64,000 nucleotides of DNA from Cyanidioschyzon merolae (taxonomy: Eukaryota): NCBI GenBank assembly GCA_000091205.1, contig AP006501.2; one strand, given 5' to 3'. The position numbers and the translations under genes are program-made. The notes under the pieces were generated by a model. That model did not search any database, was not told where the DNA came from, and was given only the letters and a program-made list of their open reading frames with translations. This document shows, in pieces, positions 1 through 44,728 of the stretch (positions are counted from its first letter, which is position 1; every line of letters begins with the position of its first letter).

Positions 1-528
1 CAGCAAGATCTGAATTCGCTCATGACATGTACATTTTTTACGCAAAACACCACGAAGAAATCGAATCACGAGGCACAGCAATCGAAAATGAAGCAGGCAA
101 TGACGTTAACCTGATTCAAGTGCATCCGCTGCGCTACATATGTACCAACATCCATACACTGGGCGTACCAACTCGGTGACCAGGCATACGCGACTACGCA
201 GCACTCTGTGCGTCTTATTCCTTCGTTCAGCTACGCGCGCTCATCTGATCGAAAATGATAGGCAGTGTTTGAGGCATTTCGCATGATGCACAGCGTCGGC
301 TTGATGCAGCCGTGGACAGCGCCACCTTTTGAACTTGGCTGTCCGATCCTCGTCGATACTTACTCAGTATCGTCTGCAAAAGACCGCATATGAACGACGT
401 GATCGCAGCGGCTCAAGTAAGACACAAGGGAAACCAGGCCCAGCGCATGGCCCGCGATATGCAGCGATGCTCGTATACGACCGGGTCGAGCACATGCGCC
501 CTGCTCCAAAGTCACATCCCAGCGATTG

Positions 529-1683
529 TCAGGAGGATTTAGGAGGTGGGTCTCGCTTCCCCACTTCCGCTTTCCTCATCTGATCGCGGCTGGCGCGCCG
601 CTGGCCCCCAGCCAAAAGTCGTTGGTACTCCACAGAGTGCGCCCAGCGATCGAGCTCGCGAGCGCGCACCACCGGCAACGGATGCGTCGCGCTGCGCTGC
701 ATCCGTTGTCGAACTTGGCGACCGAGACGAGTTCGACTCACCGAATCCAAGCGAGTAGCCTGTTGCAGAAATGCATCCGGATTCATTTCCGAAGCCCACG
801 TCGCCGAACCACCTGACAGCTTCATGAGCACACTGATAACGAGGCGAGGGTCCTGCATTACAAGCAGCGCGGCACGGTCACAGCTGAGCTCGGCAGCCTG
901 CAGCCAGCTGAAAATACGACGACCCAACATGGTTGCAAGTGATCGACCGAGTTCCCCCAGTTGTCCCAGAGCGAGTAGAAGCAGGTTCGCCGTCGTGATC
1001 CAGATTCCGTGCTCACACTTGAGATGGCCCAGCTCGTGCGCGATGACGGTCTGCAGTTCGGATGCCGTCAGTCCCATATCCAGCAACGCCGAGTGCAGCA
1101 CGATGAACGGACGCTGTCCATTAATAGCGAGGGTGTACGCGTTCGGTATCGGGTTTTGACGAATGTACAGGTCAGGAACGTCGATATGCAGAATCTCACA
1201 AGCCTCGGTGAGCAGAGCATACAACGAGGGTAGCTGCTCGGGGCCAACTAAAACACCTGACGAGATATTTTCTATTTCAAGCACCTGCTCCGCCACGGGG
1301 CCAATAACCCTCCGAATGAGTGCACCTAAACCGGTGATTCGTGTCAAAAAGTCCATTTGGCGCGTTGCAAGCGCATCCAGTGGGTGGCGAAAGTCGGCGG
1401 CCTCGAGACCGACCAACACAGCACGTTGCGAAGCCGCTTCCTGTCGCACTACCGCACAGCATCGTGTTCCGAGACGACTTGCACAGCCCGAATGCGTCAC
1501 GGAGTAGCGTCGGCAGGCTAGTTTCGAAAGCCGCCAAGCTGGTCGACTGCTCGGGATCGGCTGGTACTGAGGTCGAGTGCCCGCGGCAACTGTTCGCAAG
1601 GAGCTGTGGCTGCGGACACCCAGCGACGCGAACGCCAAGTACAGCCTCTGTTCACTACAACCGCACAGTCTGGAGTGAACCAT
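529..1683 (-). CDS. M48-family zinc metallopeptidase (HtpX/Ste24-like) with N-terminal extension, possibly organelle-targeted
   Basis: HEXXH motif 'VIAHELGHLKCEHG' followed by 'AELSCDRAALLV' (conserved downstream Glu/Asp region of M48). ATG confirmed at 1681-1683 (cat on + strand). 384 aa. Confidence 0.72.
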   Translation of the reverse strand: MVHSRLCGCSEQRLYLAFASLGVRSHSSLRTVAAGTRPQYQPIPSSRPAWRLSKLACRRYSVTHSGCASRLGTRCCAVVRQEAASQRAVLVGLEAADFRHPLDALATRQMDFLTRITGLGALIRRVIGPVAEQVLEIENISSGVLVGPEQLPSLYALLTEACEILHIDVPDLYIRQNPIPNAYTLAINGQRPFIVLHSALLDMGLTASELQTVIAHELGHLKCEHGIWITTANLLLLALGQLGELGRSLATMLGRRIFSWLQAAELSCDRAALLVMQDPRLVISVLMKLSGGSATWASEMNPDAFLQQATRLDSVSRTRLGRQVRQRMQRSATHPLPVVRARELDRWAHSVEYQRLLAGGQRRASRDQMRKAEVGKRDPPPKSS

Positions 1684-2704
1684 TATCCACGTGTAGCTTT
1701 ACGTGCTATTTCGATACGCTTGACACGAGTTTCAGATAAGATATACGCACAACAGAGCGCGTGTGTTGGAGAATCCACGCGCAGTGGCGAGCGCACGTTT
1801 CACGTTCCCGGGAGCGTTCATGAATCGCTACGCACACAGGCGCCTCCCAGTGTTTTCGAACCTGTCGCTTGTTCGCGCTTTCTGTTCATCCAGGCACAGT
1901 TTGAGCCTGAGAGACTGCCCCACAAAGTTGGATTGCATCAGCTTATTAGGTCCCGTGTCTTCAACATCACATATCGTCTGATATTGATACAGTCTCGGTT
2001 GGTGAACTCCTCGCGTTTGCAGCCTCTGGTTGAACCTAACTTTGCAGGGACTCCTCGAAGTTGTGGCCTCGATGCCGTCCAAGTCTCGTTTGCATCCCGT
2101 TGGGCAAACGCTTTTCATCGTCTGTCTCCCCTCTTCTCCGTCTTGTTCTTCCTATTCGTTAATCGCTCTTCTTTATTCGATGGTCGGTGAGAGAGGATTT
2201 TTTCGGTTTTTTTCCAGCAGCCGGCGATGGCATCCCTGCGGGATCTCCGACTACCACGTCCATGCTTCTCCCCTGGATTCTTTTTCTTCAAATGAGCGCA
2301 CTTCAAATGCATCAGCTACAAACCGCGAACATGCATTCGATGACAAGCACCTGGGTGTGAAACACAACTGAGATGAAAGACCACAAGGAGTATGCTCCTC
2401 ATTTGGCAATAGAGAGCTTGCCTTGGAACGCGAGTTGTCCCCGCAACGCCGTTCGTATTACCTGCCGTGTTGGGCTTACTGTTGAACGAGGCTTTTGTGC
2501 ATTCGTTGCGCAACTCGCGAGTGAGCAAACGCTGTCTAGCTGCCCGCTGCTATGACGCTGGTTTGGAGCTCGCTCACTCGTGCGATCAAGCAAGACCTAT
2601 CTCGGGGGAGAGTCTTGTGCACCAGGTGCGTCTCTGTAGCGGCGGACGAACGCAGCTGTGGAGAGAGCCTCGCGTGCTCTCCGAGGCGGGGTACACTCTG
2701 GACT

Positions 2705-4243
2705 ATGGACAGGTGCCTCCGACGTTGCCGGGAGCGCAATCTTTTGGCCTCTTTTCGTGGGACGAGTGCCGCTGCATTGAAACATTCGCTCTCTCAGCTG
2801 TGGAAAGCGTGCGCACACCAGCGTTACAGCGGTACGCGTGTCGTCAAACGGAGCTGCAGCTGCGGTGTGGACTACCCGGACGAGCGGCCTACCACTGACG
2901 TGCAGCACGCGAGCACCACAGAAACTTTGCAGTTGGCGGAGACAACAAGGCATGGGACTGGCGCATGTGCGGCTCTGGTGCACCAGCGAATACCGCCATA
3001 CGAAGCTAGTTATTCGGCATTGGCGGCCAGGTATGCCGAGCGGGCTCCTACTCTAGGCAGCGACTTGACGCCGGCAACTCGAGTGCTCCAGTTTCGATCA
3101 GCGCGTAAGCATGACCGGCGGTTAGAAACGCGACGTTACCTGGAGCACTTTACCAGGGGCTTTGCAGATGCACGCGTTTCTCCTTCGGTTCTCGTTTTAG
3201 CAGAGCATGCCCGCGGGAATGTCGCGCCTGCAACCTGGGCTGCATTACGAGCAGCCCAGCAGGTATGCGGGGGCACGTTGTCGAGCAACGGCAACGACGC
3301 CAAACAAACTGGACATATTGAGGTTCTCGTCTTCGATCGCGTGGATTCAGATATGGGGGCGGTTCTAAAACAGCTCGCTCAGGTTGACGGTGTATCGCGA
3401 CTCGTTCTCGTTTGTGATGGGCACTGCAGGTATCCCGTTGCCGAGATGCTGGCCCCTGTCATTGCCCGCTGGAGTGCAGAGCAAGGCTATTCGCACGTGT
3501 TCACTGGCGGGAGTACTTTTGGCAAAAATATTCTACCACGCGCAGCAGGTATCCTGGGCATCCAGCCGCTCTCAGATATCATGCAGGTGTGTTCGCCATG
3601 GGAATTCGTGCGTCCGTTGTATGCGGGGAGCATTCTGGCCCGCGTACGCTTGGTACCTCCCTCTGAACCGTCATCTAAGACTGGATGGCGTTGCTGGGCG
3701 ACTATTCGGGGTACCGCTTTCGAGGCCGCGCAACTTCGCCACGATGACGCCTGTCCAACTGAACTCGACATCACAGACAAGGCAAGGCAGTATCTCCAAG
3801 ACGCCGCACCGCCAGCCGTGGAGTGGTTGCAGCAGACGGGCGCTAACGCCGAAAGGCCGCGCTTGGAAAGCGCCCACATCGTTGTTACCGGTGGCCGTGG
3901 CCTCCGCGACGCCGAGCACTTTCAAGCCTTTGTGATGGAGCTTGCAGACCGTCTGGGGGCAGCCGTTGGCGCCACGCGGGCGGCTGTTGATGCCGGCATG
4001 TGTGCCAATGAACTTCAGGTCGGGCAGACAGGCAAGGTTGTTGCACCAGAGCTCTACATCGCCGTGGGCGTGAGTGGTGCCGTCCAGCACCTTGCGGGCA
4101 TGAAAGACAGCAAGGTCATCATCGCCATCAATAATGACCCAGAGGCCCCGATTTTCCAAGCAGCCGACTACGGCCTCGTCGGTGACCTGTTTGAGATCAT
4201 GCCCGCTCTTTTAGAGAAATTATCTAACTCGCATAAAAAATAG
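2705..4243 (+). CDS. ETFA: Electron transfer flavoprotein alpha subunit (ETF-alpha); 5' end uncertain
   Basis: C-terminal half matches the ETF-alpha FAD-binding domain almost motif for motif ('[81 protein letters not shown]'). The N-terminal domain '[17 protein letters not shown]...[30 protein letters not shown]' is also recognisable. Homology only begins near nt ~3165. The only in-frame ATGs are at 2552 and 2705, which leaves an unusually long N-terminal extension. Confidence 0.8.
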
Positions 4244-8463: not shown

Positions 8464-8561
8464 CCAGACTCGGCATCTCGAAGCGGTGGATCACTGCGGC
8501 CGACACTACGGCATTCTCCCGAGACGCTTCCATTGCGGTATCGAGTACGCTGATGAAGCGG

Positions 8562-9256
8562 GGAACTTGGCGACTGAGACAAAGTCTTCAACGTAGAAGC
8601 CTCATGGTGCAAGGATCGGGTGTATAAAGGTACGAGATACTGCGAACTTGGCGACTGAGGCACAGTCTTCAACGTAGAAGCCTCATGGTGCAAGGATCGG
8701 GTGTATAGAGGTACGAGATACTGCGAACTTGGCGACTGAGGCACAGTCTTCAACGTAGAAGCCTCATGGTGCAAGGGTCGGGTGTATAGAGGTACGAGAT
8801 ACTGCGAACTTGGCGACTGAGGCACAGTCTTCAACGAAGAAGCCTCATGGTGCAAGGATCGGGTGTATAAAGGTACGAGATACTGCGAACTTGGCGACTG
8901 AGGCACAGTCTTCAACGAAGAAGCCTCATGGTGCAAGGATCGGGTGTATAAAGGTACGAGATACTGCGAACTTGGTGACTGAGACACAGTCTTCAACGAA
9001 GAAGCCTCATGGTGCAAGGATCGGGTGTATAAAGGTACGAGATACTGCGAACTTGGCGACTGAGACAAAGTCTTCAACGTAGAAGCCTCATGGTGCAAGG
9101 ATCGGGTGTATAGAGGTACGAGATACTGCGAACTTGGCGACTGAGGCACAGTCTTCAACGAAGAAGCCTCATGGTGCAAGGATCGGGTGTATAAAGGTAC
9201 GAGATACTGCGAACTTGGCGACTGAGACAAAGTCTTCAACGTAGAAGCCTCATGGT
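8562..9256. repeat. 81-bp minisatellite, ~8.6 near-identical tandem units
   Basis: Unit 'gtcttcaacgtagaagcctcatggtgcaaggatcgggtgtataaaggtacgagatactgcgaacttggcgactgaggcaca'. Copies differ at only a few positions (ataaagg/atagagg; gagacaaag/gaggcacag; acgtag/acgaag). It lies in the 5' flank of the ACS-like gene. It yields a 306-aa repetitive ORF (8319..9239, minus strand) in a frame that overlaps the ACS-like CDS. Confidence 0.9.
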
Positions 9257-9602
9257 ATATGCATGATATCTAAATCCAACGATACATAAACTAGACCCGC
9301 GCACGCAAACTGCTTGTACGTGACTGTTGCCCCCGGAGAGCAACTGCATACCCTGCCGAGTCCTCGTTGACTTGAAGCAGCGAAAGCGACTGCTTTCGCT
9401 ACTTCCATACCACATCGCTACAGCGCTATCCGCTCGTGAACGCTTTCCGTATGCACCACCGCTCTTGCTCGGGTTGTTCCCGGTACTGCTTCACCTAGAG
9501 CAGGTCCAGTGCACGCACGTGTTTGTTGCCGCAAACTTGTTTACGTTCTTGTTGGTTCTCATGTTCCACATCATGGGTTTTCTTCTGGGCTACCACTTTC
9601 GT

Positions 9603-21816: not shown

Positions 21817-22740
21817 GGTGACGACTGGAGCGATCATTCGCTGCCGTCGCTGCTGCAGCTGATTTTTTACCTCTGACGAGGGGTTTCTATTGTATTTGGA
21901 ATCGCGTATTGCGGGATGGATATTACGATTTATGTAAGTGTTCATCAGGATGCTGAACTTCAAGTTCCATGACAGATACTTCCTTGCGGATGTACTGGTC
22001 GTTTCGGACGTTCTATCATGAGTCTAGTGCCTGCAGTACGCATACGCGTTAGCGCCGAGACCGCTGGAGCGGATATTTCATAGAGCCCGAACGGCTTTGC
22101 CATACGACTGGGGCGGGGGGTGTTGGCCCAAGGCATGATTCACTGGACATCGGGGTCGGAGCGTAGAATCATTCTGGGAGCGTGCAAGCTGTGCAGACGC
22201 ACTGCCTGTGGCAGCAGCGCGAAGCGATATACAAGGAGTACACTGCGACCAGGGCGATGCCCAGACGCTGGCTAACTGCTCGAAATCCCAGAATAAGCGG
22301 CGTTTCTGACGAGTTGCCCAGGTCTCAATAAAGCTCCTGCAACTGGGGGCCTGAAGCACAAGCCTGGCAGGCTCGTGCGACTCGCGGGACCTTACGTCCA
22401 GAAGGTAAACTCTCGACGATACGGAAACCTTTGCCCCCTTTTATCGTTTGTCGTAGAGGGGCAAAGAAAATGTTATCTCGCTACTAGTTTGTAACTAGTC
22501 TCTGTCCTTTTGGGTATATCATGCGCTCGATACGCGCACCTCCATATCTGGCAGTCACAAGACCTGACGTGTATCGCGCCGATGAAGGGAAACGCGATCC
22601 TGATCATGAGCGTGTAGCTCCAACGTACAGGACGCATTTGCGTTGAGGTCATGCGAAAGTATAGTATTTCATCCCAGATGAGTTTCGACCCTCAATGGAG
22701 TGTATTCAAGTGATTTTTCGCGGTTTATAGTAGTAGCGTT

Positions 22741-23140
22741 CAAAGAGCATTCTTTTCCAAAAACAAAAAATCCAAGGGACAGGTATCGACCTGGATGTTG
22801 GGAATCCTTAAGGGCCATCATCGTCGAATTCGACGAAGAATAACCGAAGAAGAAATCCTCTTTTCGTCGACTATCGAGCGAACATGAGCGAACGATGCGG
22901 ACGAAGAAGACCGAGAATGGATGTAGGCGAGAAAGTGTGTGCCCGACGAGACGATGACGAGACTGTAGTGGCACAGAGGGCGCGGGTTCTGGGAATCCTT
23001 GGAAAATTGCGTTCAGCCAGAGGCAATAAACGTATGGTGCTCGTGAACCGAGACTTTAACGCCGTCATCAATATCAGACGATGGGCGGTGCTGAAGACGA
23101 GACACGAGGAGCTTACGCGATCTAGCTTTGTGGAGTAGCC
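22741..23140 (+). pseudogene. Degenerate TnpB/Fanzor-like (IS200/IS605 OrfB-type RuvC) remnant, copy 1
   Basis: The in-frame translation ends '...KRMVLVNRDFNAVINIRRWAVL', matching the TnpB/Fanzor/Cas12 RuvC-III signature (D/N)RDxNAAxNI(x)RR. About 35 codons upstream in the same frame is 'KIQGTGIDLDVGNP' (RuvC-I 'GIDLG'-like), followed by a stop, which suggests an internally deleted relic. It is homologous to a second copy at ~42430-42970. Confidence 0.4.
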
Positions 23141-23204
23141 TCTCATGGGCGATGTGTACAGGGAGAAGCTGAAACCGATAGCAGGTCGCCTGTGTAGATA
23201 GGCT

Positions 23205-23257
23205 GGGAGGCGTCTGCACGTGGGTGTCAGTTTACGATCTCGAGGCGACGCCTCCAG
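23205..23257. other. 9-bp-stem inverted repeat (hairpin) ~70 bp downstream of the TnpB-like C-terminus
   Basis: 'ggaggcgtc' (23207-23215) pairs with 'gacgcctcc' (23247-23255); the 31-nt loop contains a cacgtg palindrome. Confidence 0.5.
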
Positions 23258-24119
23258 TGGTGCGGAAAGGCCGTTCTGTCTGCGCTAATGCGAGACGCGT
23301 GGTGGTTACCTGGGCCCTGCTTTTCCCTTATAGGCTATTACGTGAGCCCTTGGGCACCTTCAGCACAGAAACGTTTCCAGTCTGCAACGTGGCGGGATAA
23401 GCGAGTCGAGCTCGGAGCGCTCCGTGTACAATCACGCTGTCTCCTTTCGCAAGTTACGATGCGTACCTGTTTCGCGGCTGGATTTTTGGCACCAAAAGCG
23501 CTGTAGGTACCGGGTTCAGGTACAGTTCCATCTCGCCAGATGCTGTTGGTGTCGAAGGATCGGCTTCAGGAGGAGGTAAGCGTCCGGCATTGCGTACCAA
23601 GAGGTCTGCGACGAGGCGTTCATCGCGCAGTTCGTCGCATCAGCAGGCGGGCACTGCTTGTAATCGACTGCCTGAGCGCTTCATTGAGACGATTCATAAA
23701 AGCCATCGTCGCCTTCAGATATCACTCTGAGAACTGTTTGGACGCTGCAGAACGATTCTCGGGATGCGCGAAACATGCCCAGAGTCGGCACCTGGCATGG
23801 GGTAGGGTCCTGGTCTGTTGTGGTGTAGGATCCTTAAATCTAACCAGGTTTCTGGCGATGCGCATCCGCTTCTGATGACCACGAAAGAGGCCTCGTTCGC
23901 TTCACTAGCGCATGTGTGTGTTCGGCAAGTCCCAGTCAAAATGCCCAACAGGTATAGAGGCTTGCTCATTCCAAAGGAACAGCGGTTATCGAGTCTACAG
24001 TGGGCGCTCGCGCCACCGCGGGCTCATTCTCACACGCTCACCGCAGAGGTTCGTTTCCTAACGAGCAACTCGCGCGTCTGCAGGCGCATTCTCCAACGAG
24101 ATGCCGACCCTGAAAACGT

Positions 24120-24345
24120 ATATTTCGCTGTATTCCAAGTCTGGAATCATCCGAGGCACTAGATGCGAAGGCAGCCGGTTTCGGGAAGTGCTCGTCCCAG
24201 TCTGATACCGGAAATCCCGCTGTATTCCAGGTCTGGAATCATCCGAGGCACTAGATGCGAAGGCATCCGGTTTCGGGAAGTGGTAGTGCCTCCATCCGAT
24301 CGTATATCTCGTTGTACCCCAGGTCTGTAATCATCCAGATCACGA
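24120..24345. repeat. ~94-bp tandem repeat, 2 full units plus a partial third
   Basis: 'gctgtattccaagtctggaatcatccgaggcactagatgcgaaggcagccggtttcgggaagtg' recurs at 24221 with 2-3 mismatches. A degenerate third unit follows ('gttgtaccccaggtctgtaatcatccagatcac'). Confidence 0.85.
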
Positions 24346-24562
24346 CATACATAGGCATTATGTGTCGGGTACTCGACATTCCGCCTTGCTCGTGCTTCGC
24401 GCTGGCATACGATACAAATGAAGCACAGCCGCAGTTGCGCAGTCGCGGTTGCCAGGCCCGCGTTGCGTACGGCTGCGATGCCCGCCGGAGGACACAGCCT
24501 TGTGCTACGCTGGGCTCGTGCGGCGTTGCGCCCGTATACTGTTGGGCTCCGTTGGAGACGGT

Positions 24563-25372
24563 ATGTCGGTTAGGTGGAAGCGGCTTCAAGCACAGCTCGG
24601 TTTCCTGTCTAGTGGACTGCGCATGCAGCATACAATTTCGGAAAGCAAAGCACAAGGTGAACGAGCGCAAACTATAGCAGAACGACTGTGCAAGGTACGG
24701 GAGCGAATTCAAGTCGCTGCGCTTGCCGCAAAACGCGACCCTGCACGGGTTCGCCTAGTTGCTGTGAGCAAAACGCACGCTGCCGGTACCGTGCGGGAGG
24801 CGTATGACGCAGGTCAACGCCACTTTGGGGAGAACTACGTCCAGGAGCTGGTTGAGAAAGCGGAACAGCTACCGACAGACATAAACTGGCACTTTATCGG
24901 ACACCTGCAGAGCAATAAAGTGAGGACGCTGTTGAGTGTCCCGAACCTCTGGTGCGTTGAGACTGTCGATCGACCCAAGCTTGCGAATACACTGAACCGC
25001 CTCATGGACGAGTTGCGTCCCGACGGAGGTCCGATACCTGTGATGGTGCAGGTGAATGTCAGCGGGGAAGCGAGCAAGGCCGGGATAGAACCCGCTGCCG
25101 CTCCCGAACTCGTCGAGCACATCCTGCAGGCTTGCCCGCGGCTGAAGCTCCTCGGTTTAATGACGATAGGCTCGCCGGACCCGAGTCCAGAGCCTGTGGC
25201 GTTCCAAAGGCTCTCGCACTTACGAGACCAAATACAGGACCGGTTTAGGTTTCAAGAGCCGCTCGAGCTCAGCATGGGTATGAGTGATGACTTTGAGGCG
25301 GCGGTACGCATGGGTAGCACCAATGTACGCATCGGATCCACTATATTCGGGCCGCGTGTCTATCCGCAATGA
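24563..25372 (+). CDS. PLPBP: Pyridoxal phosphate homeostasis protein (YggS/PROSC/PLPBP family, alanine-racemase-N fold)
   Basis: 'RLVAVSKTHAAGTVREAYDAGQRHFGENYVQELVEKA...WHFIGHLQSNKVRTL...VETVDRPKLA...LLGLMTIG...LSMGMSDDFEAAVRMGSTNVRIGSTIFG' is the canonical YggS/PROSC motif series, including the PLP-binding Lys in 'VSKT'. In-frame ATGs are at 24563 and 24623; the ORF also extends upstream to 24449. Confidence 0.85.
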   Translation: MSVRWKRLQAQLGFLSSGLRMQHTISESKAQGERAQTIAERLCKVRERIQVAALAAKRDPARVRLVAVSKTHAAGTVREAYDAGQRHFGENYVQELVEKAEQLPTDINWHFIGHLQSNKVRTLLSVPNLWCVETVDRPKLANTLNRLMDELRPDGGPIPVMVQVNVSGEASKAGIEPAAAPELVEHILQACPRLKLLGLMTIGSPDPSPEPVAFQRLSHLRDQIQDRFRFQEPLELSMGMSDDFEAAVRMGSTNVRIGSTIFGPRVYPQ

Positions 25373-25993: not shown

Positions 25994-26380
25994 TCAACGC
26001 CGCAGTGCCAGTGCGACCCAGCCCAGAATAAACGCAGTTCCGCCGAGCGGCGCTACTGCACCGAGCCTCCGTTTACCCGTCAGCGTCAGCGCATAGAGAG
26101 AGCCCGAGAATAAAGCGATCCCAGTGGCGAAACACAAGCTTGCAACTTTGGCGGGTCGGTTTTCAAACGCACCACCTCGTGCAGCCAGCGCTAGTGCCAA
26201 CGAGTGCACCAGGTGGTAGGTTGCGCCGGTCTCCCAGATGCGTAGCAGCTTCGGGTCACTCACCCGGCGTGGCAATGCGTGGGAGCCAAACGCTCCCAAC
26301 GCAACCGCGAGTGCTCCCGAAAAGCCGGCGACACGCTGAACCGCGCTGGAACTCTCCCAAAACCCGGGCGTCTTCATCAT
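25994..26380 (-). CDS. DUF423/TMEM256-like small membrane protein
   Basis: 'AGFSGALAVALGAFGSHAL...WETGATYHLVHSLALALAA...LCFATGIALFSGSLYALTLTG' has four TM helices and DUF423-like Gly-rich motifs. The ATG pair 'MMKT' is at 26375-26380 (minus strand). Confidence 0.55.
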   Translation of the reverse strand: MMKTPGFWESSSAVQRVAGFSGALAVALGAFGSHALPRRVSDPKLLRIWETGATYHLVHSLALALAARGGAFENRPAKVASLCFATGIALFSGSLYALTLTGKRRLGAVAPLGGTAFILGWVALALRR

Positions 26381-26593
26381 GGTATCCACCAGGCCTGACG
26401 AGCGCGCATGCGAGAAGTCATCGCGAAGAATCGCGGCGCGCACGCCGCCCGAAAGCGAAATCATTCATGTGGGAATTTTAGCGGGAAAACGCTGGCTTTG
26501 GCGCTGAAACATATGATCGCGCTCGCTGCACCCGTGCTGGAATCGGAGGCGCGCGGCTCACAGCGGAAGCGATCTGGTGGTGCCGTCCATCCA

Positions 26594-31640: not shown

Positions 31641-33062
31641 TTCACATTACAAGGGTGCTGACAACGGAGCTGCCGGGAAACGAGACACCGGGCATAAATG
31701 GAACCGCAAGTCAGAGAGAGGAATACGAAGCAATCGCTTAAAGAAGCCCGTGAACACTGACGATAATCACCCTGAGAACAGACACAAACTTTACTGCCAA
31801 CGACCGCGTTGGACGACTTGCTTCCTTCTTGACTGATATTCATGCACCATCCAAATGATCCTACACCCGAAGGAGGAAATCGTGTTGGCAATATCTGAAA
31901 TCCCTGTTTTGCTGGAACGATTCGAAACCTGTAGGAAATCGGGCCGCGAACACTGCCTGTCCGCACTTGTTTTTCTTTTTTCGTATGACGCAGCGTCGCG
32001 CATCTTGTCGCGGGTCACCGAATACGCGATCGCGATCAGCATCAAAACGAGCATCTATGATACTGCACCGGATTTTCAAATAACACGGCTCACATTGCAG
32101 TCTTCGCTTGGGCATAATGGTTCCCTGGAACGACCATCCGCGTGCCGAGCGTACCATGGGTGCCCAGAGCGGCGCTTAGAATGCTGGTTCGTATGCTGCA
32201 CCAAGACGAAACGACTTTGGCGTACTCTTGAGGTCCTCGGCTCGAGGGCGAACCCCCGGGTACCTCGTCGTCAGGCAACGGAGCCATGACCACTCGATTT
32301 GCGACGCGGTCGTAGCTGCTCTGACACGCTGACGCATCGAACGGAGCGTATGGTAGCGATCCCAGTGCCAATGGAACCGAAGCTGCTCGAGTGCCGCGCG
32401 ACTACGCGAGCTTTCATGGTGGACCACGGGCTGCTGGTGCGCGCTGTTGTTTTCGGGCCCGAAGAGAATTCATTGATTGGTGCATTGCGTTCCTTTTTAA
32501 CAACGAGTCCGTTCCTCTATATTTCCAGCGAGAATTGGCGCTGCGAGATGGTTTCTTTTGAACAGCTCTCTTGAATCAGGCCGAGCTCGGTTGGCCCAAT
32601 CGCTCCCCGGAAAATGAAGGACGCTTCGATGCGGCCCCCGGTTCTGGTGCTGCGGTGAAATCGTCTGCGGCTGCAGAACCGGCCGTAGACACCATTGTGA
32701 AGCCCAGTAACCAGCGCTGGCGTCGTTCAAAACTCAATGGACATAAAGATACAGGGTCGTGTCACCGGTCTGATGGTAGTGCTTTCCAAAATGCGTCGCG
32801 AGGTCGAGACTCACCTGTAGCAACTCCTTGGCATCACGAGAAGCATGGATCTCGCGGAGCGTCTGGCCTCGGGTGACGGCTGTAACGGACGCACATCCAT
32901 CGCAACTGGTGCAGATGGATCCAGCGGACGCGTATCCTTGGCCTGAGGCCATCGGCGCGCGCCTCGCACTGTTGCCGAGTCATCCTCGGCATCGGTATGC
33001 ATGTCCACTGACGTCCGGGTCTTGAGGGCGAACCTGTGCGGCAGTACGCGCAGCACAACCGC

Positions 33063-33584: not shown

Positions 33585-34409
33585 GATACGCTATACGTGC
33601 ACAAGTCAAATGAATTCGATCGTCAAGACCAATATCGTGTACGCAATGGATCCGAAACAATGCACCACGAAAGGCGCTCTCGATACATGGCACGCTCAGG
33701 CGCCCAATTTGGTACCACGCGATCCGAGCACGCGCGGAGGCGTCCCCCACGGATCGGCGTCCTGCATTTGTCGAGACGCCACGAAACGAATGGGCGCACT
33801 CGTTGCAGGACAATTTTGTGATCGTGGACACGGGCGAGGCGTGCGTCGCGGATCGCCTGGGACCCTCAGTCGAATGCGTGCGTGTGGTGTGTGGGTTCAG
33901 GTTGTGATCGTCGACACGGGCGATTTTTGGAGCGAGAATTTATACGCACCAGGGATCCCTGATTGCGCGATAGAACGTCAGCGATCGGGAACGCGTCCGT
34001 CGATCCGCCAGCCCCCGAGTTCCAGTGTCCCTAGTAGACCGCGCGGGGTTTCTGATCATTTCGTTGATTCCTCTGTGCGCCGAGTCTGCGATGAGTGCCC
34101 GTGATGGCAGGTGTAGCGTCGGTGCGGACGCTGCACGGAGATGCAGTCGTTTTTTGCCATGCCCGTTAGGGCATCGTCTTGAGGTGTCGTGCACTCGAAA
34201 AGGGAGTCGGGTCTCTCTCCTTCGAACTGTTATCGAAGCGTGTGCGTGTGCAGACCTGATTTCGCGGGACAAGACGTGGGAGACAACTCGTTCGTTCACG
34301 TAAATGCATGGCGGAAACGAGTTACGCCTCTGCAGTCGTGTGTGGAATGAGTTGACGGCACGTGATGCGGGCCCATACGGCGCATTCGACCTGTGTGAAG
34401 CTACACGGT

Positions 34410-39104: not shown

Positions 39105-39469
39105 GAGCTTGACAAGCTCGTGTTCCCAGCGTCCCAGGGTATGCTGGCTGCGGGATCACGGTGAGCGCAGCGCGCCGCGCAGCGTCGGTGCGGGCGCTGC
39201 ATGTAGACAGAACGGCTTTTCTAGACTGCAGAGGGCGTTGGCTCGAGGGGTGCTTCACCCGACGTAGAGTCGGAATTCATCATCATGATACGATCAGAAA
39301 GTCTGCGGATGCAGGCTTGTCTTCGCTGCACGGCACGCTGGAGAAACTTGGTTGTTAGGATGAATTCTGGGAGCCGCCTCTCTCCTTCGTGCTCCTGCAA
39401 GGAATGCGTTGTTGTTGGTTGGCAATGCGGGTTTGTGGTTGACACCCACCCACAGTGGGTAGGCGCAGA

Positions 39470-39940
39470 AAGCGCACTGTGCCCGTGTACGCATCCGCTT
39501 CGCTGGACCTGCTGCCTAGAAGGTAGCATGTGAGTTTGTTCGCCACTCATGAGCGCTGAGACTCGGTTAGCGGACCATCAGTTGCCAGTGCTACACTCAA
39601 AGTGATTGTCCGGCCTTCGCCTATCACGGTGATGCCCAGCTGCTGGTGTCCTTCAAGCAGCTCGCTGCGCTCCTGCTTCCAGCGCGGGCACTGTAAGCCT
39701 AACTATGTCAGCGTGTCGGGGATCTCGTTTCCACAGCAGGGACAGTGTGATTCCCAGAGTGATTCCAGTGTTCCTATGCGGCTTAGAGCCGGTGCTGCTA
39801 GTCAGAAGCCACCAACGCGGATTTTCGCGAGCCACTGAGTACCTCGAGCAAGTCCCGGGAATTCCAGCGCCTCCCACCAGTACTTGCATGTGTATGCGAG
39901 GTTGTAGTTCCGGTATAGAGTCAAGCCAGCGTCTCGACGC
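39470..39940. repeat. Dispersed repeat family R2, copy b (~470 bp), direct orientation relative to copy a
   Basis: See copy a. Also 'cgcttcgctggacctgctgcctagaaggtagcatgtgagtttgttcgccactcatgagcgctgagactcggttagcggacc' versus 34431 'cgtttcgctggactccgcacctaaaaggcagaatatgagtttggtggccaccagcgagcgttgcgactcggttggagaccc'. Confidence 0.8.
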
Positions 39941-41284: not shown

Positions 41285-42429
41285 CGATAAGCAGTTGCTG
41301 CGTGCGATCGCTGCAACGCTACACCAACGTACAGAGGTGAACGTCTATCATAGAATCTGACGCTACACACCAGTGCAGAGACTGATGCGTCCCAGGCGTT
41401 CGCGCGTTCGATCTCGAAAACGATGACTGTTATGTGCTGTTATATCCGTAGATGTCCAGCCAAAATTTTTTCAACTCGAGACTGCTCCACCCATTCTGTG
41501 GTGGATGGCAGGCGATCGACTCCACAATGCAATGTATCGTACAGATCATAGACGAAATCTCTCTAGGATGTATTCTGTGCGAAACTGTGCAAGGAGGACT
41601 GTATTTCTTGTTCAGGTGAGTCATATCATAGTGCTTAGATGGTTGAGGATTACTGAAAGGCACATGTAGATGCGCTTTGCGCAAAAAATATTATGAAAGA
41701 CTGCTCATCGTCAATGATAGAAAACGAACCGTTGATCAGCATATGGAAAGTAAAACCAACGATCGTAGACACAGCAAGTGTCTCTGTTTCTCAACAGCTT
41801 GTTCACGTGGTACTCAAAACACTGGGGTACAGTCACAACAAAGTCCGCGTTCACGCACGACTCTCTTCCACAGAAATCGCAGCGACAGCGTTCCTGAAAC
41901 GTCGCGATCGCTATGATACAGAGAAACGTCGGTTATTTTTTTCAGTGTATGAGACTTGCTTCAGAGGATACGGTCGGAACGTCCATGGGTATTTGCAGAG
42001 AGGGAGCCCGTTGTGTCTATGACCGAACTCGAAGAGATACAGGTTATCATCTTCTATTCTAGCAGCAGTGGATCCATTTGGTGGCCTCAGTTTCGCTTGT
42101 AAAGAAGTCTCGTAGAACAGCAGCAATGCTGTCGACTCGTTAAAGACTTTTCCCCGGACCTCTGGCGACGTTCTTCTACTGTACAACGTAGAATTTCAGC
42201 ATTCACTTTGCGTTTGGGCTTTTCCGGATTCTATCGGGGTGCAGCTGCTTTTCACTCTTCCGTCCTCTCCGAGATTCAACGCTATAAAGAGGAGTGGTTT
42301 CTATGGTGAAACGCGTTGATCGGTCCATTGTACGAATCGCCGAGGCGTTCAGGACACGGTGACGCCAGGGCACATTTTGTCTGTCTGCCGCGAGTGCCTC
42401 TCCCGCTGCGAAATTCCTCACCCGAGTGC

Positions 42430-42970
42430 TTAAAGAGGTGCATTCATTTTCAAAAATAAAAATCCAAGAGAAGGCTATACACATGCAAACTGGGTATTCA
42501 GGAGTGCCATCATCACTGGATTTGACGAAGAAAACAGTAAACAAGGCCAATCCCAGAGGAACAGGAGAAGACCAAGAAGCACAAGCCGGAGGCCTGACGT
42601 CAATGGCCGCAAGAAGGACCACAGTACAACGAGATCGTAGTGAAAACCTGTCTTTTCGGGTATTTCGAGGATCCGTGCAAACAAAAGTTGCGAAATGGCC
42701 ATCAGAAACCGTGTCGAGTCGTGCGCCATGAGTTTTATGGACGCCTCTTCAGGCCGAATGCATTTGGTTAAGGTCATGCAACGCGACGTGACGGGCATCA
42801 AAATGGGCGAGGTTCCAGTGGAGTCTCTCGACCAGATCTTCATTCGCCACTTGATGTTTCGCACAGGGCAAACGTCGAGGAGAAATGAACGAGTGCATGC
42901 CATTCACGAAAATGACGCCGAATATCGCTTCGACGGTGCTCGACACAAGCTTGACTCGTGTATTTAAGAA
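42430..42970 (+). pseudogene. Degenerate TnpB/Fanzor-like remnant, copy 2 (frameshifted), inside an AT-richer island
   Basis: Nucleotide homology to copy 1: 'cattcattttcaaaaataaaaatccaag' versus 'cattcttttccaaaaacaaaaaatccaag', and 'gccatcatcactggatttgacgaagaaaacagtaaacaagg' versus 'gccatcatcgtcgaattcgacgaagaataaccgaagaag'. At the peptide level 'GRMHLVKVMQRDVTGIKMG' parallels copy 1 'NKRMVLVNRDFNAVINIRR'. The reading frame is split across ORFs 42426..42731 and 42695..42967. Confidence 0.35.
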
Positions 42971-44728
42971 TACGGGGCGATCAAGTACCTCATGAACCCG
43001 AAGAACCATTTGACTATGACCCTTGAACGCATCATCATACGCTTCATGTTTGCACTCTACCCGGGCCACTCTCGCATCGGGACATGGGCCATCATCATCG
43101 GCATTACGAACGATCGCCAGCATGAACGGGAGATCGAATTCATCGACAAGAAGACACCGCGCAGGAGAAAGAATGAGGACTCTGTGATCTGTGCCGCTAT
43201 TCAAGAGCACCGTGCGGTCTTGGGGCTGGTCAATCCAGCAGAATAGGTATCCGATATGAAAAAGAAAGATGTTATCCTCTCATCCTGCGTTATTTCGTGT
43301 TTCTGAGTCGAGAACTCGAATGCAAAGCCGAAATATAGCAGAGTGTGGGAAAAATAGTGACGGGGAAACGGAAGGCTGCGCTTCTGGGGAAACGCTTCAA
43401 CGTGGTTCCAATGTGCAACATCAAGTCACATATCGTGACTATCTACTCCAGAGTCCTGCACGGCATCATGAGGCAGCTCTACCCGGAGTTCAATCGACGG
43501 AAGATAGAGCTCACCGGTGAAAACCGGGAGACTCATTGGAAGAGTATCTTCGATTGCAAACGTCTGAAAACGAGCAAGAAAAAGGTATTCGCGGGCAGGA
43601 TCGAGACCGATGGGGTCTCCATACGTGTACACTACCAGCGGTTGAAGGCGGGTCGTCCTATTGTGTCCACGGCTTCGCCGTGGCGAACCATGAAGATGAG
43701 AAGGAGGTGGATCCTGCGACGCAGTGACCTATCCCTGGATAGGTCACTGCGTCACTATCAACCCGAAGCACAAACCGAACACGAATATCCATGCACACAG
43801 ACGTCGCCAACGTTGCATTCTAACAGCAAGCATCCGAAGCGCAACCTCTTCATCATCATCGTAACACCCCGCGGTGTCTCGATTCGACACAGACCAGGCG
43901 TCGTTTTCATACTGGCGGTTGAGCGCAGCGACAGAGGCTTTTATGTTGCGTGCGAGACGCACCGAGGCCCGCAGCACCCATCCCCAGGGCGTGTACTGCA
44001 AAGCGAACTGTAAACCGCGCTGCGAGGCATCCGATGCGAAGCACCCGAACACAGGCCCCCGGCACCTGAGCACCCTGGAATCCGCTCAAATATGTCCAGT
44101 TCGAATCGGTACCTCTGGGTGCGCTCGCACCGACACCATGTACCCGTTGGGCAGCAGGATCCCCGCAGACACTCGTTTACGACCAGTATCTACGATAAAC
44201 GCGCCATCGACGAAAAAAAGCAGTTTCAGAGATACAGTGTGTTCCGCTGTTGAACGTTGCAGCGACAAGCAGGATGCACAGTGCGGAGATAGCGCGGATG
44301 CCTCGTCGTCATCGTCGTCGTCGCCGTCGCCGTTACCTGCCCTATGCAGACAACAACAAGCACCGTACAACATCGAGACTCGCACACACCAGCGAGCGGT
44401 GTGTCTTCTGGTTTCACACACCCATACGCGCGCTGTGCTGCACGGTCATCGCCTTCGCGCCGTTCGCCAGGGACCCCAGACAAGCCGCGGTTGCTGCGGG
44501 AGCGCTCCCGTGTCCGCTGCAGTGGGTCAGCGTCCGCCAATCGTCCCGCAAGCATCCGCTTTTGGCGGTTTTTTCGATGCTCCCCTGCTGTCCGTTTAAG
44601 CAGGGGCCTCCAATGCATCATCCATTCCACCCAGTTACACTCTTTTCGTGAAAACGAGGTGTTCTTCATTATACCTGCATCCAGGGCACGTGCAACGGCC
44701 GCTCGACACCTTGTAGCTACGCAGATAC

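Follow-up and report, generated by a model that had tools for sequence, protein, structure and literature searches.

A 64,000-nucleotide (nt) stretch of Cyanidioschyzon merolae DNA from contig AP006501.2 (hereafter the window) holds, at positions 22741-23260, a reading frame with a motif resembling the third catalytic block (RuvC-III) of TnpB and Fanzor nucleases, followed by a hairpin. A first-pass annotation had taken the interval for a miniature nuclease relic with a subterminal structure, which raises the question of what this locus is and whether any part of it retains a function. We found that window 21874-23291, here called copy A, is almost certainly one old, dead copy of CMe-1A, a C. 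merolae transposable element that carries a Fanzor1 gene. The annotation had suggested that a decayed Fanzor family in an intron-poor alga would be of interest; the family is already known, CMe-1A having been described in the same genome in 2013 as one Fanzor1 family of ~150 copies (Bao & Jurka 2013, Mobile DNA 4:12; PMC3627910). Those copies are ~80% identical to a 3169-bp consensus with a single 734-amino-acid (aa) Fanzor1 open reading frame (ORF), CMe-1, and some have intact ORFs (PMC3627910). The 5′ 635 bp of CMe-1A are 95% identical to a separate element, TE-N2_CMe, which has ~70 copies; target site duplications were not determined, no transposase was reported, and the class of the element was left unknown (PMC3627910).

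Copy A and its parent element

Using the consensus DNA and the CMe-1 protein from Additional files 2 and 3 of Bao & Jurka 2013 (PMC3627910), we compared CMe-1A with the window by blastn. Consensus 4-969 aligned to 21874-22851 as one high-scoring segment pair (77% over 985 columns), consensus 2833-3088 aligned to 22969-23221 (71% over 256 bp), and consensus 204-273 aligned, inverted, to 23291-23224 (77% over 71 bp, E 2e-7). Across 1060 aligned positions copy A is 77.6% identical to the consensus, in keeping with the ~80% similarity of the family. The host is also that of CMe-1A, as the proteins encoded at 24563-25369 (YggS-like) and 25997-26464 (DUF423) are identical to XP_005539006.1/BAM82970.1 and XP_005539007.1/BAM82971.1 of C. 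merolae strain 10D. The element is not the ~520-bp miniature first proposed: it begins ~870 bp upstream of that interval, at 21874, runs to ~23291 and has a 5′ leader of 900 bp. It consists of the following parts.

21874..22509, + strand: 5′ module, consensus 4-635 (blastn and coordinate map)
22510..22784, + strand: 5′ leader, consensus 636-905, running from the end of the TE-N2 module to the former ATG
22785..22970, + strand: remnant of Fanzor1 codons 1-55 (MEKEVEDPGGPVSPAAGKKRK...YDEMVV), from alignment to the CMe-1A consensus and the CMe-1 protein
22971..23221, + strand: remnant of Fanzor1 codons ~644-729 with RuvC-III, consensus 2835-3088; TAG at 23136-23138 in frame and a second stop beyond
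23224..23291, − strand: inverted TE-N2/CMe-1A 5′ fragment, consensus 204-273, adjoining the 3′ end of the Fanzor remnant

The + strand frame that closes at this TAG agrees letter for letter with the one quoted in the first-pass annotation. Its longest open piece is the ORF at 22884-23138 (+), 84 aa (MSERCGRRRPRMDVGEKVCARRDDDETVVAQRARVLGILGKLRSARGNKRMVLVNRDFNAVINIRRWAVLKTRHEELTRSSFVE), and within it NRDFNAVINIRR lies at 23046-23081. This peptide fits the RuvC-III pattern (N/D)RDxNAAxNI, and the majority form in the same frame across 26 paralogs (described below) is NRDFNAAINIRRC. By tblastn, CMe-1 aa 625-729 aligned to 22938-23225 with E 7e-17, pairing …RAKVRGLLALVSTTSDGKKRMEFVNRDFNAAINIRRCAVLEKRPPELTRENFVGQPLKVELYEKKLEAVVGGRSKKTGRRLHV of CMe-1 with …RARVLGILGKLRS-ARGNKRMVLVNRDFNAVINIRRWAVLKTRHEELTRSSFVE*PLMGDVYREKLKPIAGRLCR*AGRRLHV of copy A (asterisks are stops). 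The significance of the motif derives from this homology to CMe-1A, which blastn extends at 71-77% over 1.2 kb, and NRDFNAVINIRR is a true RuvC-III block, belonging to the Fanzor1 C-terminus and read in the frame originally quoted. An alternative frame reading 'KNPRDRYRPGCWESLRAIIVEFDEE', which also matched a longer copy in the window (copy C, below), was ruled out by the published protein alignment, which supports the quoted frame.

The second motif did not fare as well. 'GIDLD' (22782-22796), proposed as RuvC-I, aligns to MEKEV, residues 1-5 of CMe-1; its 'I' is the former start codon, changed from ATG to ATC at 22785-22787 and followed 8 codons on by TAA at 22809-22811 (consensus ORF start ATGGAAAAGGAAGTGGAGGATCCTGGAGGCCCG, MEKEVEDPGGP…, versus ATCGACCTGGATGTTGGGAATCCTTAAGGGCCA, IDLDVGNP*GP, in copy A from 22785). 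The distance from 'GIDLD' to 'NRDFN' is 83 codons, not the ~35 that had been stated. The first two catalytic blocks of CMe-1 lie elsewhere in the protein.

CMe-1 aa ~427-436: RuvC-I (VVGADPGNTN), within the deleted aa 56-643 and absent from copy A
CMe-1 aa ~600-616: RuvC-II IPVDEFRTSYTHHELGC (IPVDEFRTS/VDEFRTS), followed by the zinc finger, within the deleted segment and absent from copy A

The segment missing from copy A is consensus ~1071-2834 (aa 56-643), in frame, with the junction between 22970/22971 (±6 bp). Of the 734-aa Fanzor1 ORF (consensus 906-3110), codons 1-55 and ~644-729 alone remain, interrupted by stops. Copy A is a deletion derivative of CMe-1A and not a full member, which bears out the earlier description of it as internally deleted and non-autonomous.

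That the parent protein belongs to Fanzor1 was examined by profile and by structure. An independent hidden Markov model (HMM) trained on seven green-algal Fanzor1 sequences, C-terminal halves only and CMe-1 excluded, recognized CMe-1 with E 7e-18 and aligned VDEFRTS and NRDFNAAINIRR to its blocks vDEfrTS and nRDvnaAsnirr…RP. Searching with the CMe-1 protein returned 43 relatives, including distant ones at 31-43% identity and P0033, a nearly full-length protein of 752 aa that is 71% identical and has all three RuvC blocks. The seven best PDB matches of the AF2 model of P0033 in Foldseek were all Fanzor1 (SpuFz 9ceu/9cez/9cey/8gkh, GtFz 9cer, PpFz 9cf0/9cf1; E 1e-13 to 5e-9), and the next, Cas12i/h/phi, had E>0.09. 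Profile and predicted fold thus both indicate that the CMe-1 parent family is Fanzor1. Four of the relatives, P0072-P0075, are apparently intact proteins of 662-702 aa at 31-43% identity bearing FVNRDFNAAINIRRC or FVSRDLNGAMNIRRY. Since they were found in other samples (JGI, ENA and Logan), the family reaches beyond C. merolae 10D. The precomputed Pfam family PF26935 is present on many CMe-1 relatives.

Several observations weigh against this reading of copy A. The relic peptide by itself is without statistical recognition: a Pfam search of it together with the ORFs of 41300-44100 gave no match at E≤10, and PDB sequence searches with the relic peptide or with full CMe-1 found nothing relevant. 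In the independent Fanzor1 HMM the relic fragment 22812-23135 was the top of 1813 window fragments, yet with E=0.26. Because the peptide alone scores at this level, its assignment to Fanzor1 is transitive, by way of CMe-1. For the parent, Pfam PF07282 reaches only E 0.52 on full-length CMe-1, and the P0033 model from AF2 is of mediocre quality (mean pLDDT 61, pTM 0.43, TM 0.3-0.39). As to the spread of the copies described next, segmental duplication or gene conversion could have contributed.

The short copies and their history

The deletion in copy A is shared. Metagenome contigs scanned with the C-terminal peptide gave 389 relatives, of which 80 loci were kept, all from hot-spring metagenomes that hold the window's own locus as well; dereplication left 25 short-form loci. 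Together with copy A, at least 26 distinct loci carry the identical in-frame deletion, with the same architecture and breakpoints, and relative to the consensus they join …YDEMVV (codons 50-55) to (E)RRAKVRGLL (codon 644 on). A BLAST pairing of 'CARRDDD…' with 'CQRSPEDIEKYGALTEEQ' was dropped upstream of RAKV, where 'DDETVV' corresponds to the N-terminal 'YDEMVV'. Most short paralogs start at consensus ~786, equivalent to window 22660. In a word-indexed protein search, matches to the relic were limited to its own locus and one paralog, P0002 on contig L001, its sole non-syntenic protein match, which has both short-form blocks. This contig does not represent another species: it is the same locus as L015/L017/L028, from the same metagenomes. 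At this locus (L001:1042-1235) and in copy A, an inverted TE-N2 fragment replaces the usual family tail at the same junction, the inverted part of the L001/L015/L017/L028 locus spanning consensus 65-266 (E 7e-30). This suggests a sub-lineage that already carried the composite end when it was copied.

The window itself contains at least six pieces of the CMe-1A/TE-N2_CMe repeat system, three of them Fanzor-bearing copies. Besides copy A these include the following.

1837..2381, − strand: copy B, a more decayed short copy with the breakpoints of copy A; consensus 790-969 and 2840-3083
41470..43724, + strand: copy C, a longer CMe-1 copy; leader at 41470-42437 (~0.95 kb), Fanzor1 part at 42438-43724
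32139-32247, + strand: TE-N2_CMe-like fragment, consensus 148-256 (this and the next two range over 62-67% identity)
33939-34211, + strand: TE-N2_CMe-like fragment, consensus 14-282
39176-39525, + strand: TE-N2_CMe-like fragment, consensus 184-534

Copy B retains the ATG (MDVVVGDPAGMPSPAAGKKPKK / MDVVVGDPAGMPSPAAGKK), reads NRD---CINIRRYVMLKTR at the motif and has stops. The Fanzor1 part of copy C corresponds to consensus 871-2162 at 81% identity, covers codons ~18-404 with stops and frameshifts, and ends before RuvC-I; the region 41300-44100, which had been flagged as a second candidate, is accordingly a related, longer copy. Its leader is 68-71% identical over ~900 bp to DNA upstream of ~10 'class 2' short copies on metagenome contigs. 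This alternative 5′ type is absent from the published consensus, and copy C may represent a second subfamily. The metagenome relatives also include old copies of full length (L087/L088, consensus 5-3092, 79%) as well as younger copies, at 84-90%, that extend to consensus 3169. On L027, L049, L059 and L061, young (84-90%) full-length CMe-1A 3′ ends sit 1.6-2 kb upstream of old short copies; CMe-1A elements seem to cluster.

Mean pairwise diversity among the 26 copies was 0.346/0.338/0.343 at codon positions 1/2/3 (permutation p=0.48), and nearly all of them contain stops or frameshifting indels. Their majority consensus recovers an open C-terminal frame, …NKRMEFVNRDFNAAINIRRCAVLKTRPEELTRSNFVGQPL…. 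The equal diversity of the three codon positions marks the copies as neutral relics, and their history is probably one of a single burst followed by neutral decay. Copy A descends from a variant in which a single in-frame deletion removed codons 56-643, the bulk of the protein, and with them RuvC-I, RuvC-II and the zinc-finger region. Spared by the deletion were the 5′ leader, ~55 codons at the start of the gene, ~90 codons at its end that include RuvC-III, and the 3′ end. Since this deleted variant reached at least 26 genome sites with shared breakpoints, we infer that it was mobilized in trans, as other non-autonomous elements are; every copy has since undergone neutral decay.

The short form (~0.6-1.4 kb) might also be more than this, namely a distinct, once-active non-autonomous 'mini-Fanzor' family of at least 26 loci with two 5′ leaders, which kept only the parts needed in cis: imperfect terminal inverted repeats (TIRs) of 21-23 bp and a 3′ ~250 bp encoding a putative guide RNA. 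We regard this as unlikely. Consensus 5-31 has an imperfect 21-23-bp inverted match to the 3′ termini of the family (GACAAAACGTTTACATTGACCATGGA and its complement). Its reverse complement matched the tail of the short/old lineage (TCCATGGTCAATGTAAACGTTTT versus TCCATGGTC-GTG-AAACGTTTT; 0/1000 shuffles as good) and consensus 3086-3107 (GTCA-ATGTAAACGTTTTGTC versus GTCAGTTGGAGACGTTTTGTC; 4/1000 shuffles as good); examples of short-copy tails with the match are L031:3800-3860 and L088:3770-3810. Bao & Jurka (PMC3627910) found no TIRs in CMe-1A. A search for the TIR motif where the class-2 leader begins was negative, and neither direct repeats between the 5′ end of the short element and its own tail nor a match of the reverse complement of consensus 196-280 to the family tail rose above shuffles. 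If the proposal were true, CMe-1 elements would be TIR transposons, the spread of short derivatives would depend on the guide-RNA end, and the family would show, as a natural experiment, what such an element requires in order to spread.

The 3′ end and the 84-aa ORF

The hairpin that had been noted downstream of the frame lies across the junction between the Fanzor remnant and the inverted TE-N2 fragment.

23206..23255, + strand: hairpin with a perfect 9-bp stem and a 32-nt loop; arms ggaggcgtc at 23206-23214 and gacgcctcc at 23247-23255

The stem exists as described, its left arm starting 68 bp past the stop at 23136-23138, but it does not exceed chance: folded as single-stranded DNA, the segment reached −12.5 kcal/mol against −9.55±1.99 for shuffles (z −1.48; 19/200 shuffles equally good). 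Its left arm is consensus 3073-3081, within the Fanzor ORF, where it encodes 'GRRL', and its right arm belongs to the inverted TE-N2 fragment. The L001 locus, the nearest paralog to share this junction, has GGAGGCTTC and GACACCCTC as its arms, and these do not pair. The extra ~15 bp are missing from most other copies, and a recurrent GGAGG/CCTCC pairing seen by eye was discarded, the CCTCC partner occurring in 4/26 copies only. A long inverted repeat within copy A, between the 5′ TE-N2 module and the 3′ inverted fragment, scored within the shuffle range. Because its arms come from two different pieces, are unpaired in the closest paralog and are weak against shuffles, we regard the hairpin as having arisen by accident where an inverted TE-N2 fragment came to adjoin the Fanzor 3′ end, and not as the subterminal hairpin of an IS200/IS605-type element. 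Nor does the 3169-bp consensus encode the Y1 transposase (TnpA) of IS200/IS605 or the serine recombinase of IS607: Fanzor1, at 906-3110, is its single long ORF.

The retained 3′ segment (~22971-23291, hairpin included) could nevertheless have been kept as a guide-RNA scaffold (omega RNA/fRNA) or as a cis-acting subterminal structure for mobilization, a proposal that we consider improbable. With it goes the equally improbable suggestion that the short form is what mini-IS200/IS605 (PATE-like) elements are in bacteria, transferred to a eukaryote, and that a functional RNA may still come from it. TnpB/Fanzor systems produce their omega RNA from this end of the transposon, and the transcript may overlap the ORF at its 3′ end (Saito et al. 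2023, PMC10432273); this same end, with a ~55-bp tail, is kept in 26/26 short copies. Diversity is lower in the former coding 3′ part (0.28-0.35) than in the flanks (0.65), but a core less diverse than unrelated flanks is expected from common descent alone. The tail of copy A folds as RNA with z −2.2, whereas the mean for the tails of all copies is −0.68 and RNAalifold on the 26 aligned 3′ ends returned neither a consensus structure (−0.11 kcal/mol) nor compensatory pairs. An Rfam search of the copies' 3′ ends for an omega-RNA-like structure gave no match, the 9-bp stem is confined to copy A, and the short copies have decayed neutrally. A former RNA role of the retained 3′ segment, as the first-pass annotation envisaged for this end, may have existed but finds no support in these data.

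The open piece of the frame raises the separate matter of a surviving protein.

22884..23138, + strand: 84-aa ORF, present in metagenome annotations as a 73-aa 'hypothetical protein' (P0001)

It is very hard to credit that this ORF encodes a mini-protein of Fanzor C-terminal origin that has been domesticated or still functions, even though its 84 codons are open, the Asp of NRD is retained, and it is 99% conserved in same-locus hot-spring metagenome contigs, where it is called as gene P0001. Such identity reflects near-identical strains and not selection. The ORF cannot be a RuvC nuclease, because the RuvC-I Asp, the RuvC-II Glu and the zinc finger are missing; the ancestral ATG upstream of it is gone and is followed by TAA. 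Its homologs are paralogous relics only, in which there is no third-position excess and stops fall at scattered sites. The ORF is open by chance, and its sequence is not under selection. The converse extreme, that the RDxNAxxNI match is itself a chance likeness in non-coding DNA, can appeal to a short motif in a peptide with no Pfam/PDB match and an HMM E-value of 0.26, and is essentially untenable given 71-77% nucleotide identity to the CMe-1A consensus over ~1.2 kb flanking the motif on both sides, the tblastn alignment, and NRDFNAAINIRRC as the majority state in the same frame in 26 paralogs. As a dead CMe-1A deletion derivative, the copy A locus would be inert today, its start codon gone, its frame broken by stops and its 84-aa ORF a chance survivor.

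Significance and comparison with known systems

As a discovery this locus carries little weight, since the abundance, age and intact ORFs of C. merolae Fanzor1 were published in 2013 and Fanzor biochemistry in 2023. The deleted short form is unmentioned in the description of CMe-1A by Bao & Jurka (PMC3627910); the short family, the second 5′ leader type and the imperfect TIR are minor additions to that description. The shared in-frame deletion, second leader type and weak TIRs could aid classification of how CMe-1 elements move. The practical value lies in annotation: copy A and three to six other stretches in the window are to be masked as CMe-1A/TE-N2_CMe repeats, and the 73-84-aa 'hypothetical protein' calls at the copy A locus in metagenome annotations are pseudogene fragments. 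Elsewhere in the window there is a tandem array at 8482-9348 of ~10 units of 81 bp (27 codons if coding), whose central copies are 94-98% identical, and three tandem 92-bp units (100/85/62% identity) lie at 24110-24385, after copy A and before the YggS-like gene.

Copy A shares with CMe-1A the genome, the TE-N2_CMe-like 5′ module, the reading frame and the C-terminal peptide (…KRMEFVNRDFNAAINIRRCAVLEKRPPELTRENFVGQPL…). It differs from the consensus in having lost consensus ~1071-2834 (aa 56-643), and at its 3′ end it leaves the consensus at ~3088 for the inverted TE-N2 fragment, in place of consensus 3089-3169. The parent protein resembles the Fanzor1 nucleases SpuFz1, GtFz1 and PpFz1 (Saito et al. 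2023, PMC10432273; PDB 8gkh, 9ceu, 9cer, 9cf0) in the predicted fold of P0033 and in the D…E…D RuvC triad motifs ADPGNTN, VDEFRTS and NRDFNAAINI. Of these the copy A relic has the third only, and unlike an active Fanzor1 it has lost 2/3 catalytic motifs and the start codon. CMe-1 itself departs from the characterized Fanzor1 nucleases in its degenerate zinc-finger region (HHELGC…C), and CMe-1 proteins are not known to have an RNA partner.

With its long leader, the short form measures ~620 bp to 1.4 kb and so exceeds typical miniature inverted-repeat transposable elements (MITEs) in size. Conserved terminal hairpins of the IS200/IS605 kind, as in PATE and other IS200/IS605 derivatives, were not found in it, and unlike the typical non-autonomous DNA transposon it has no known transposase even in its full-length relative, CMe-1A. 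What it has in common with non-autonomous internal-deletion derivatives, both MITE-like elements and the bacterial PATEs derived from IS200/IS605, is that the ends are retained while the interior is gone, and that many dispersed copies share identical breakpoints.

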